Assembly: GCF_030028105.1 (NCBI RefSeq)
Contig: NC_092375.1
Span: 135,001,035 to 135,065,034, forward strand
Direction: 5' to 3'
DNA: 64,000 nucleotides
Origin: Mobula birostris
Taxonomy: Eukaryota
The notes under the pieces are model-generated. The model had not been told where the DNA came from. It was given only the letters and a program-made list of their open reading frames with translations, and ran no database searches. The position numbers and the translations under genes are program-made. Shown here one piece after another: positions 51,852 to 63,645 of the stretch (its first letter is position 1; every line of letters starts with the position of its first letter).

Positions 51852-52087
51852 CAAGCAAGAGAAAATCTGCAGATGCTGGAAATCCAAGCAACACACACAA
51901 AATGCTGGAGGAACTCAGCAGGCCAGGCAGCATCCATGGAAGAGAATACAGTCAACGTTTTGGGCCGAGACCCCTCATCAGCAGCACGACCTGTTAAAGT
52001 CCTGCCAAAGGGTCTCGGCCCGAAACGTCAAGTGCACTCTTTTCCAATAATGCTGCCTGGCCTGCTGAGTTCCTCCAGCATTGTGTG
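51852..52087. mobile_element. Palindromic Penelope-derived element with hammerhead motifs on both arms
   Basis: Inverted arms; hammerhead-like motifs at 51949-51981 (-) and 51998-52033 (+). TSD-like 14-mer tgaaggctgcagca / tgaagactgcaaca. Confidence 0.8.
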
Positions 52088-52711
52088 TGAAGACTGCAAC
52101 AGTTCAAGGCAGCAGCTCGAAACTACCTTCTCAAGTGCAGCGAGGGATGGACGCAGCCTCTGATGCCCACGTCCCTTGGATAAATATAATGGAGATGTTT
52201 GTATCCAGAGGGCATAGGGTAAAGGGTTAGAGGTTTAGAGGGGATTTGAGGGAGTACTCTTTCACCACGAGGGTGTCTGGAATGTGGAATACACCGCCTG
52301 AGAAGGCGGTAGAGGAAAAGACTCTCATTGTATTTATAAAATATCTAAACAAGCACTTGGATCTCCAAGACTCTGGGCCAAGTGGTAGTAAATGGGATAA
52401 ATCAGCACACAGACCCTGTCCTGCTGTGACCCTGAGGGCAAACAGGACCAGCTTAGATTGGCATCTTGGTGGGCATTGTTGAGTTGGGCTGAGGGGCCTG
52501 TTTCTGTGCTGTATTAGTCTATGAATATAGAATGGCAATTGATGGTCAGTATGAACATAATGGGCCAAAGGTCCTGTTACTATGGTCTATGATTCTATGC
52601 CTTCGACTCTGATTCAAACCATGTGAAATTTTTCACAAGATGAAGACATGTCTATACAACAGGAACTGACGTGAGCTTCAATAACAAACTACCAGATTGC
52701 TAATATTACCA

Positions 52712-52848
52712 AGAGCCCTGAAGAAGGGTCTTGGTCCAAAATGTCGACTATATTCATTTCCATAGATGCTGCCTGACCTGTTGAGTTCCTCCAGCATTTT
52801 GTGTGTGTTGCTTTGTATTTCCACTATCTGCAGATTTTCTCGTGTTTG
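52712..52848 (+). mobile_element. 137-bp single-arm hammerhead-bearing element with 11-bp TSD
   Basis: taatattacca at 52701-52711 and 52849-52859. The insert begins just before ctgaagaagggtcttggtccaaaatgtc. Confidence 0.8.
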
Positions 52849-52882
52849 TAATATTACCACTACTTGCTGAGTTAAACGTTCT

Positions 52883-52897
52883 CCACTAGATGGTGCC
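52883..52897 (+). promoter_or_regulatory. CTCF-consensus motif
   Basis: CCACTAGATGGTGCC versus consensus CCACYAGRKGGCRS. Confidence 0.45.
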
Positions 52898-59688: not shown

Positions 59689-62600
59689 CTGTTTGAGTAC
59701 TGTTGGGGGTGTGGGGGGGGCGGCCTACCTGGGGGAAGCAACAGTGCCCATGCCTCTGGCACAGAGTCTGGCCCTGTGGCTCAGAAGGGTAGGGAAAGGA
59801 AGAGGATGGCAGCAGTGATGGGGACTCTATAGTTAGGGGGTCAGACAGGCGATTTTGTGGACGCAGGAAAGAAACACGGATGGTAGTTTGCCTCCCAGGT
59901 GCCAGGGTGCGGGATGTTTCTGATCGCATCCACGATATCTTGAACTGGGAAGGAAAACAGCCAGAGGTCGTGGTACATATCGGTACCAATGACATAGGTA
60001 GAAGAAAGGAAGAGGTTCTGAAAACAGACCACAGGGAGTTAGGACGGAAGTTGAGAAGCAGGACCACAAAGGTAGTAATCTCGAGATTACGGCCTGTGCC
60101 ACGTGACAGTGAGTATAGGAATAGAGTGAGATGGAGGATAAATGTGTGGCTGAGGGATTGGAGCAGGGGGCAGGGATTCAGATTTCTGGATCATTGGGAC
60201 CTCTTTTGGGACAGATGTGACCTGCACAAAAAGGATGGGTTGCACTTGAATCCCAGGAGGTCCAATATCCTGGTGGGGAGGTTTGCTAAGCCTACTGGGG
60301 AGAGTTTAAACTAGAATTGTTGGGGGGTGGGAACCAAACTGAAGTGACGGAGGAAGGGGCGGTTGGCTCACAAATAGAGAAAGCTTGTAGACAGTGTGAG
60401 AAGGAGGATAGGCAGGTGATAGAGAAGGGACGCGCTTAGGCTGACGGTTTGAGACATGTCTATTTTAATGCAAGGAGTATTATGAACAAAGCGGATGAGC
60501 TTAGAGCGTGGATCAGTACTTGGAGCTATGATGTTGTGGCCATTAGAGACTTGGGTGGCTCAGGGGCAGGAATGGTTACTTCGAGTGCCAGGCTTTAGAT
60601 GTTTCAGAAAGGACAGGGAGGGAGGCAAAAGAGGTGGGGGCGTGGCACTGTTGATCAGAGATAGTGTCATGGCTGCAGAAGAGGAGGAAATCATGGAGGG
60701 ATTGTGTACAGAGTCTCTGTGGGTGGAATGTTAGGAACAGGAAGGGGTCAATAACTCTACTGGGTGTTTATTACAGACTACCCAACAGTAACAGGGACAT
60801 AGTGGAGCAGAAAGGGAGACAGATTCTGGAAAGGTGCAATAATAACAGGGTTGTCATAGTGGGAGATTTTAATTTCCCAAATATTGATTGGCATCTCCCT
60901 AGAGCAAGGGGTTTAGCTGGAGTGGAGTTTGTTAGGTGTGTTCAGGAAGGTTTCTTGACACAATATGTAGATAAGCCTACAAGAGGAGAGGCTGTACTTG
61001 ATTTGGTATTGGGAAATGAACCTGGTCAGGTGTCACGTCGCTCAGTGGGAGAGCATTTTGGAGATAGTGATCGCAATTCTATCTCCTTTACAATAGCATT
61101 GGAGAGAGATAGGAACAGACAGTTAGGAAAACATTTAATTTGAGTAAGGAGAAATATGAGGCTATCAGGCAGGAACTTGGAAACATTAATTAGGAACAGA
61201 TATTCTTAGGGAAATGTACGGAAGAAATGTGGCAAATGTTCTTGGGATATTTGTGTGGCGTTCTGCATAGGTACGTTCCAATGAGATGGGGAAAGGATGT
61301 TAGGGTACAGGAACTGTGGTGGATAAAGGCTGCTGTAAATCTAATCAAGAAGAAAAGAAGAGCTTATGAAAGGTTCAAAAAACTAGGTAATGATAGAGAT
61401 CTAGAAGATTATAAGGCTATCAGGAAGAAACTTAAGAATGAAATTAGGAGAGCCAGAAGGGGCCATGAGAAGGCCTTGGCGGACAGAATTAAGGAAAATC
61501 CCAAGTCATTCTACAAGTATGTGAAGAGCAAGAGGATAGGACGTGAGAGAATAGGACTAATCAAGTATGACAGTGGAAAAGTGTGTATGGAACCGGAGGA
61601 GATAGCAGAGGTACTTAATGAATACTTTGCTTCAGTATTCACTACGGAAAAGGATCTTGACAATTGCAGGGATGACTTACAATGGACTGAAAAGCTTGAG
61701 CATGTAGATATTAAGAAAGAGGATGTGCTGGAGGTTTTGGAAAGCATCAAGTTGGATAAATCACCGAGACTGGACGAAATGTACCCCAGACTACTGTGGA
61801 AGGCAAGGGAGGAGATTGCTGAGCCTCTGGCGATGATCTTTGCATCATCAATGGGGATGGGAGAGGTTCCAGAGGATTGGAGGGTTGCAGATGTTGTTCC
61901 TTTATTCAAGAAAGGGAGTAGAGATAGCCCAGGAAATTATAGACCAGTGAGTCTTACCCCAGTGGTTGGTAAGTTGATGGAGAAGATCCTGAGAGGCATG
62001 ATTTACGAACATTTGGAGAGGTATAGTATGATTAGGAATAGTCAGCATGGCTTTGTCAAAGGCAGGTTGTGCCTTACGAGCCTGATGAATTTTTTGAGGA
62101 TGTGACTAAACACATTGATGAAGGTAGACCAGTAGATGTAGTATATATGGATTTCAGCAAGGCATTTGATAAGGTACCCCATGCAAGGTTTATCAAGAAA
62201 GTAAGGAGGCATGGGATACAAAAGGACATTGCTTTGTGTATCCAGAACTGGCTTGCCGCAGAAGAGTGGTTGTAGATGGGTCATATTCTGCATAGAGGTC
62301 GGTGACCAGTGGTGTGCCTCAGGGATCTGTTCTGGGACCCTTACTCTTCTTGATTTTTATAAATGACCTGGATGAGGAAGTGGAGGGAGGGATTAGTAAA
62401 TTTGCTGTTGACACAAAGATTGGGGGTGTTGTGGACAGCGTGGAGGGCTGTCAGAGGTTACAGCGGGACATCGATAGGATGCAAAACTGGGCTAAGAAGT
62501 GGCAGATGGAGTTCAACCCAGATAAGTATGATGTGGTTCATTTTGGTAGGTCAAATATGATGGCAGAATATAGTATTAATGGTAAGACTTTTGGCAGTGT

Positions 62601-63314
62601 GGAGGATCAGAGGGATCTTGGGGTCTGAGTCCATAGGATACTCAAAGCTGCTATGCAAGTTGACTCTGTGGTTAAGAAGGCATACGGTGCACTGGTCTTC
62701 ATCAATCATGGGATTGAGTTTAGCAGCGAGAGGTAATGTTGCAGCTATATAGGACCCTGGTCAGACCCCACCTGGAGTACTGTGCTCAGTTCTGGTCACC
62801 TCACTACAGGAAGGATGTGGAAACCATATAAAGAGTGCAGAGAAGATTTACAAGGTTGTTGCCTGGATTGGGGAGCATGCCTTATGAGAATAGGTTGAGT
62901 GAACTCGGCCTTTTCTCCTTGGAGTGACGGAGGATAAGGGGTGACCTGTTAGAGGTGTACAAGATGATGAGAGGCATTGATCATGTGGATAGTCAGAGGC
63001 TTTTTCCCAGGGCTGAAATGGCTAACACGAGAGGGCACAGTTTTAAGGTGCTTGGAAGTAGGTACAGAGAAGATGCCAGGGGAAAGTTTTTTTTTAAATA
63101 TACGCAGAGGGTGGTGAGTGCGTGGAATGGGCTGCTAGTGACGGTGGTGGAGGCAGATACAATAGGGTCTTTTAAGAGACTCCTAGATAAGTACATGGAG
63201 CTTAGAAAGATAGAGGGCTATGGGTAACCCTAGGTAATTTCTAAGGTAGGGGCATGTTCAGCACATCTTTGTGGGCCAAAGAGCCTGTATTATGCTGTAG
63301 ATTTTCTATGTTTC
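59689..63314 (+). mobile_element. Long CR1 LINE: ORF1 esterase, ORF2 APE-RT (frameshifted) and 3' tail
   Basis: VVHIGTNDI and DGLHLN (SGNH); [35 protein letters not shown]; ttctatg tail; TACTC on both flanks. Confidence 0.95.
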
Positions 63315-63403
63315 TACTCAGCTTGCTGAAAGTGGTGTCCCAGAGACACAGGGTGGGGAAGAAGGTATTTGGCCTTTATCAACCAGAGCACTAAGTATAG
63401 GAG

Positions 63404-63645
63404 ACACAAGAAATTCTGCAAATGCTGGAGATCTTGAGAAACCCACACAAAATGCTGGAGGAACTCAGCAGGTCAGGCAGCACCTATGGAGGGAAATGAA
63501 CAGTCTACGTTTCAGGCTGAGACCCTTCATCAGCTCTCTTCCATTCCAGACTGGATGAAGGGTCTCGGCCCAAAATACCAACTGTTCATTTCTCTCCATA
63601 GGTACTACCTGGCCTGCTAAGTTCTTCCAGCAGTCACTGTGTGTT
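63404..63645. mobile_element. Palindromic Penelope-derived element with 16-bp TSD and hammerhead motif
   Basis: TSD gcactaagtataggag / gcactaagcataggag. Minus-strand CUGAUGA-AGGGUCUCAGCCU-GAAA-CGUA at 63501-63533. Confidence 0.85.

Follow-up and report, generated by a model that had tools for sequence, protein, structure and literature searches.

We analysed a 64,000-nt stretch of the genome of Mobula birostris (NCBI RefSeq assembly GCF_030028105.1, contig NC_092375.1, positions 135,001,035 to 135,065,034, forward strand), hereafter the window, where three short insertions (E1, E2 and E3) are made up of the terminal repeat and hammerhead ribozyme of a Penelope-like element (PLE). These insertions are, with good probability, dead, 5'-truncated copies of a very abundant, endonuclease-bearing PLE family of rays. 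This is an ordinary kind of element and is not new as a system. The first-pass annotation had seen here its best candidate for an under-described system; we regard the three instead as truncated insertions of a known PLE kind. All counts and junction comparisons cover this 64-kb window.

Three short insertions with their own target site duplications

The insertions lie where they had first been placed, at 51852-52087 (E1, 236 bp), 52712-52848 (E2, 137 bp) and 63404-63645 (E3, 242 bp), and each has, as also claimed, its own target site duplication (TSD), see Table 1. Positions within the element are counted from the C of the CUGANGA box (+1), with self-cleavage predicted after +28 (cut site +28/+29). 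The significance of the TSDs was estimated from 400 random position pairs searched with the same slack. The TSD score was reached by 10 of the 400 pairs for E1 and by 0 of 400 for both E2 and E3. Among the eight loci searched, TSDs are present at these three; the search found no TSD at E4 and nothing convincing at 5339, 34517 or 38550, while the 7-bp candidate at the 28200 copy is within chance.

In E1 and E3, two inverted arms meet head to head at a junction adjoining the CUGANGA box, in agreement with the description of two fold-back palindromes inverted next to the 5' end of the hammerhead. The three insertions are old, inactive copies. Their arms diverge by 6-20% from the majority sequence of the window, the identity between arms of different elements is 74-87%, and in the 33-41 region E1, E2 and E3 differ like separate subfamilies. 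All five of their ribozymes are broken, through core changes or through the lack of the helix I 5' strand; in E1 arm a both GAAA and GUC are mutated and the helix I 5' strand is missing. The 3' junction of E2 is bridged by a contig with a second species label (9 differences in 281 letters), hence E2 is old. The two arms of E3 have seven minority states in common, two of them private. This is the top result among 36 arm pairs, equalled by one other in the first of these counts, and is as expected if both arms came from one template.

Table 1. Copies of the PLE terminal repeat in the window and their duplications.
Feature	Position	Strand	Description
E1 left TSD	51838..51851	+	14 bp; right copy 52088-52101, 2 mismatches
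E1 arm a	51852..51981	-	PLE terminal repeat, +1 (C of CUGAUGA) to full 3' end with tail (+130)
E1 filler	51982..51997		16 nt between the arms; no other match in the window with <4 mismatches
E1 arm b	51998..52087	+	inverted copy, -4 to ~+86, without tail; CUGANGA box mutated
E1 right TSD	52088..52101	+
E2 left TSD	52701..52711	+	11 bp, exact; right copy 52849-52859
E2	52712..52848	+	single terminal repeat, -4 (52714, after 2 extra bases) to +130 with tail; ribozyme broken
E3 left TSD	63388..63403	+	16 bp; right copy 63646-63661, 1 mismatch
E3 arm a	63404..63533	-	+1 to full 3' end with tail; helix I 5' strand missing
E3 arm b	63534..63645	+	inverted copy, ~-18/-20 to ~+92, without tail; core mutated
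E4 inverted arm	53115..53301	-	last ~20 codons and stop of the open reading frame (ORF), start of the 3' untranslated region (UTR)
E4 forward arm	53303..53643	+	213 nt pyrimidine-rich 3' UTR, minimal type I hammerhead, tail; different subfamily
W0	1..84		third fold-back, incomplete at the window start; minus arm from ~+6; plus arm -4 to ~+90 without tail, ~25-nt internal gap
Long decayed copy	5339..5890	-	ORF end, 3' UTR, degenerate hammerhead, tail
Long copy, E1/E2 type	28200..28482	+	at least ~95 nt of upstream UTR
Split copy	34517..34968		probable fold-back split by a fragment of a long interspersed nuclear element (~34583-34879); plus arm (34880-34968) ends at ~+88
Very decayed long copy	38540..38717	-	~90 nt of upstream UTR

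3' ends and the fold-back layout

Tail-bearing ends lie at +127 to +130 (six arms), and the inverted arms end at +86 to +92 (four arms: E1b, E3b, W0b and 34880-34968). The 28200 copy, trimmed at its microsatellite, was excluded from this count. The two 3' end points lie on either side of the tail with a spacing of about 40 nt, and the palindromes have a tail on one side only. A tail of 30-40 bp at one end with an inverted 5'-truncated copy alongside is described as the typical PLE layout (PMC8557442, PMC3846280). For an anole PLE studied in vitro, both strands are described to be nicked and extended, reverse transcriptase (RT) to start inside the RNA at two sites bracketing the tail, and ribozyme cleavage to be unnecessary (Frangieh 2024, PMC11167929). 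The layout of the ray palindromes fits such a start of RT at two sites with priming on both nicked strands. Simple snap-back of a single complementary DNA (cDNA) was ruled out for E1 and E3: the inverted arms carry upstream bases that are missing from the first arm. The hairpins at the cDNA ends are weak, about -5 kcal/mol.

The first-pass annotation had named identical palindrome junctions at different loci as a sign of self-propagation. In the window all three readable junctions differ, E1 joining +1 to -4 through the 16-nt filler, E3 joining +1 to about -19, and W0 joining +6 to -4. The short copies fall in different sequence types, a sample too small for a tree.

5' starts at the edge of helix I

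The starts of the copies range from +6 to about -400. We counted them for 12 arms at eight loci, leaving out the split locus at 34517, whose starts are unreadable. Seven of the 12 arms (four of the eight loci) start between -20 and +6, no more than about 25 nt from the helix I front. Three of these starts fall at -4 (three loci, same base), two at +1, one at +6 and one near -19. If truncation followed a geometric distribution with a mean of 100-400 nt, four of eight loci would fall in this interval with p = 0.0005-0.007, a significance that is overstated since the interval was picked after seeing the data. At the cut site, +29, no arm starts (0/12), which indicates that the template was not cut by its own ribozyme. 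The repeated breakpoint beside the ribozyme had been taken to suggest that the RNA structure defines the unit. This stands in so far as the starts are non-random, but the boundary is the helix I 5' edge, about 30 nt upstream of the cut, and self-cleavage does thus not define the unit; the template end or a stall of RT may do so. The cluster itself suggests either run-off at the 5' end of the RNA or an RT stall.

The base at -4 is at once the helix I 5' edge and the A of CCAGTCC. This heptamer fits the pattern YYANWYY, which we take to be that of an initiator; the pattern carries little information, and helix I is built from these very bases. In Penelope of Drosophila virilis an internal promoter is described, the transcript starting in the upstream repeat, 46 bp ahead of an intron that ends at helix I (PMC2377424). 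By eye, the ray element shows no in-place counterpart of the D. virilis downstream promoter element. A splice-acceptor model (pyrimidine tract, AG at -4/-3) was rejected as the main cause: three arms retain the AG and none starts at -2. The open-access literature yielded no description of this ray PLE family or of 5' starts at helix I.

A fixed start could also be the usual 5' end of an upstream pseudo-long terminal repeat (pLTR), if solo repeats of the E2 type were left, as solo long terminal repeats (LTRs) are, by recombination between the direct pLTRs of a full-length insertion. This route cannot produce head-to-head pairs flanked by a TSD on either outer side, yet E1b and W0b share the -4 start of E2, and the homology required is very short, about 90-130 bp. 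The window holds no full-length partial-tandem copy with direct pLTRs. Recombination would preserve the exact TSD and the fixed unit length of E2, and solo pLTRs of rotifers are ascribed to recombination or deletion, though those are without TSDs (PMC3846280). On balance we consider this origin very unlikely.

The hammerhead ribozyme

The hammerheads were identified by reading the motif directly from the sequence. The only intact core among the window copies belongs to E4 (53512-53548, predicted cut after 53543) and consists of a 4-bp helix I, CUGACGA, an extra A, a 3-bp helix II, GAAA, C-GUC and, where helix III would be, a palindromic ACGU. In the contigs that match E2 and E4, the commonest letters preserve the core. 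A search of Rfam at E<=1 gave two chance matches, neither of them a hammerhead. Folding of seven arms gave no significant z-score, and the minimum-energy structure from cofolding two E4 ribozymes was not the classic dimer. Scans for the ribozyme motif found none in viral contigs and none in prokaryote genomes; three metagenome loci with the motif were discarded as chance, their similarity being confined to 23-30 nt. Minimal metazoan PLE hammerheads are considered to require either a dimer or a helper, and those found singly, or 100-700 bp apart on opposite strands, are ascribed to truncated PLEs (PMC4209133).

The first-pass annotation had left the choice between truncated Penelope insertions and an independently mobilised ribozyme element of the retrozyme kind, and only the first part is upheld. 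In a non-LTR retrozyme the hammerhead would cut tandem transcripts into monomers that are circularised and then reverse-transcribed, and tandem units define the class (PMC7229834, 10.64898/2026.07.22.740005). The window contains no tandem array of the unit (four arrays, all with a period <=19), the cut site coincides with neither end of any arm, and the unit of about 135 nt, which spans -4 to +130, does not correspond to a permuted circle. The broken cores of E1-E3, the differing junctions and the presence of long copies are further points against it, inverted arms cannot form an in-strand dimer, and the ray hammerhead is minimal whereas that of coral retrozymes is canonical (PMC7229834). Despite the type I hammerhead in a PLE terminal repeat, the large TSDs, the PLE pLTR origin proposed for retrozymes and their occurrence in the sole chondrichthyan sampled (10.64898/2026.07.22.740005), we find a retrozyme extremely improbable.

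Longer copies and contig depth

Nine loci with the PLE terminal repeat are present in the window, in addition to a faint tail-only match to the PLE 3' end near 10800 (10790-10835), perhaps of another family. The further decayed copies that had been listed all exist, but those at 5339, 28200 and 38550 are longer 5'-truncated copies, not short units. The copy at position 1 is real and is the third fold-back, and the list had omitted E4 (53115-53643). Four of the eight scored loci extend 90 to about 400 nt upstream of the hammerhead, and two of them reach the ORF end, of which the window copies hold only 20-27 codons. We take this end to be a GIY-YIG-like C-terminus, an assignment that was not confirmed by any search. 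Seven profile-library hits of the ORF ends were to unrelated repeat proteins and were dismissed as spurious.

E4 has the form of an L1-style twin-priming inversion (53115-53331), its arms overlapping by 28 nt; this is a kind of inversion other than the tail-bracketed palindromes. Side features were also noted at two other copies. A (TG)25 microsatellite (28379-28429) sits at the tail-less end point (about +88) of the 28200 copy, and the PLE repeat may seed microsatellites. At 34583-34879, the 3' end of a long interspersed nuclear element (LINE), presumably of CR1 type, lies in the centre of a PLE palindrome, apparently in place of part of one arm.

The stretch 52660-53700 was compared at 80% likeness with the contigs of two DNA runs, where 201,737 and 237,973 contigs match. 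Of these, 1,366 and 1,488 continue in frame past 53301 into more coding sequence. In run X1 the summed contig depth is 1.1-3.3 M on the upstream UTR of E4, 1.1-4.1 M on its inverted arm and 1.6-6.3 M on its hammerhead and tail, whose bins also collect contigs of other subfamilies. For E4, the depths upstream of the hammerhead and on it are thus of one order of magnitude, with no step at the hammerhead edge.

Loose contig ends on E2 proved to be private mutations of E2, not breakpoints. Two single-contig joints (52823 to 52760 and 52717 to 53555), from runs only guessed to be RNA, show no closure at the cut site and were not used. Among the joints listed, a few contigs in all four runs link the ORF end (53248) to the E2-type repeat (52751) in the orientation of the element; these would represent either an internally deleted form or long copies from another subfamily.

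These data bear on whether the short copies are units in their own right, i.e. a non-autonomous element like a short interspersed nuclear element (SINE): a solo repeat of about 135 nt, transcribed from its own internal promoter at -4 and reverse-transcribed in trans by PLE RT, with palindromes arising anew at each insertion. Three arms at three loci do share their start base (A of CCAGTCC). An internal promoter is described for D. virilis Penelope (PMC2377424), pLTR sequences are enough for mobilisation in trans in a rotifer (PMC3846280), and non-autonomous PLE derivatives exist (PMC8557442). However, E1, E2 and E3 are as far apart as separate subfamilies (74-87% identity), long copies of the same types occur in the window (28200, 5339), and the E4 subfamily has no depth step at the hammerhead edge. 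The anole protein, in addition, requires RNA that extends to ORF base 172, past the start site at 111-118 (PMC11167929), and such sequence may be missing from a genomic stump. Such a unit is therefore, in our judgement, improbable.

Proposed origin of the insertions

Truncation of an endonuclease-bearing PLE remains the preferred explanation, and the insertions would then have been made by the element's own RT/GIY-YIG protein. Staggered nicks by this putative enzyme would give the 11-16 bp TSDs that are observed. RT would start inside the RNA at +130 or at about +88, about 40 nt apart around the tail; the end points are seen in the copies, and the internal starts are proposed from the anole PLE in vitro. 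Priming by one nick would yield a single arm such as E2. Priming by both nicks, one per site, would yield two cDNAs joined head to head with a one-sided tail, which is the layout observed in E1, E3 and W0. RT would pass the uncut minimal hammerhead and often end just beyond it, at the helix I 5' edge. As the cause of this last step we prefer, tentatively and at somewhat short of an even chance, run-off from the 5' end of an RNA whose transcription begins in the upstream terminal repeat. An RT stall after unfolding of the ribozyme is a realistic but lesser possibility, and a small-sample effect behind the start cluster is unlikely.

In a bolder version, the transcript starts at the helix I 5' edge, a fixed "strong-stop" cDNA of about 135 nt has been integrated en masse, and some solos with an internal promoter and both RT start sites are now a self-propagating class of SINEs free of transfer RNA, with the uncut ribozyme at the head. 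This we hold to be rather unlikely.

Several observations weigh against the proposed origin. The arms of E1 are 83% identical and no nearer to each other than to other copies, giving no one-template signal. A different origin of head-to-head repeats, self-priming on an antisense template, is proposed by Arkhipova et al. 2013 (PMC3846280). In Anolis carolinensis the start sites of Poseidon (PAc) are AC-rich (PMC11167929), whereas the corresponding end points in the ray are UG-rich on the hammerhead strand. With E3b beginning some 15 nt further upstream than -4, the arms do not all agree with one fixed 5' end of the RNA, which counts for stalling. RT and endonuclease are unconfirmed, the ORF ends being without a match in Pfam, in homologue searches or in the Atlas. 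PLE membership rests on the ribozyme, the tail, the inversion and the TSD pattern. The depth concerns the E4 subfamily, gives no copy number and is silent on upstream depth of the E1-E3 types.

The formation of inverted repeats and tails in PLEs and the role of the hammerhead are described as still-open questions (PMC8557442, PMC11167929). The abundant ray family offers a fossil record for the PLE mechanism: its palindromes fit two-strand priming at two start sites in vivo, and its 5' starts are a modest, testable clue to the 5' end of the RNA template.

Other features of the window

The window is batoid ray DNA, rich in LINE remnants. An exon of FASTKD2 lies at 167-328 (FAST_1 domain hit), with 100% and 98% identity over 54 residues to the FASTKD2 of Mobula birostris and Hypanus sabinus, respectively. 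The region at about 4860-5013 resembles another exon with a GT donor at its end, 5013; a Pfam search of it gave no match. A 534-codon open frame at 14451-16055 with an RVT_1 domain (E 5e-36) is a well-preserved LINE piece, which we assume to be of CR1 type. A related remnant with a GDSL/esterase-like ORF1 is found at 59793-62105. At 570-682 and 1258-1370 an inverted repeat of 113 nt, 87% complementary and 575 nt apart, is possibly a miniature inverted-repeat transposable element.

Comparison with known systems

The ray units share with metazoan non-LTR retrozymes their shortness, lack of coding sequence, type I hammerhead, PLE pLTR ancestry and large TSDs; they differ in not being tandem, in their minimal ribozyme and in a boundary that is not at the cut site (PMC7229834, 10.64898/2026.07.22.740005). 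The ray ribozyme resembles the minimal type I hammerheads of metazoan PLEs as described in PMC4209133, which have the CUGANGA and GAAA boxes, an extra base before helix II, a short helix I, no real helix III, a palindromic ACGU, and occur singly or as opposite-strand pairs. Unlike these, the predicted ray ribozyme has a helix II of 3 bp with a 6-nt loop and is undetected by the Rfam models.

PAc also has two end points about 40 nt apart around the tail, both strands joined to element 3' ends, and a hammerhead that is copied uncut (PMC11167929). Differences are that the ray ORF has no visible start in the ribozyme and that the ray element, in contrast to PAc, is a genomic sequence only. With the endonuclease-bearing PLEs (Penelope/Poseidon, Neptune) the ray copies have in common heavy 5' truncation, an adjacent inverted truncated copy, a tail of about 40 nt at one end, TSDs of about 10-16 bp and a hammerhead in the terminal repeat (PMC8557442, including the legend of its Fig. 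2; PMC3846280). Compared with these PLEs as described there, the ray family is set apart by whole insertions reduced to the 90-135-nt repeat, by a density of about nine loci per 64 kb, and by 5' starts that cluster at the edge of helix I.

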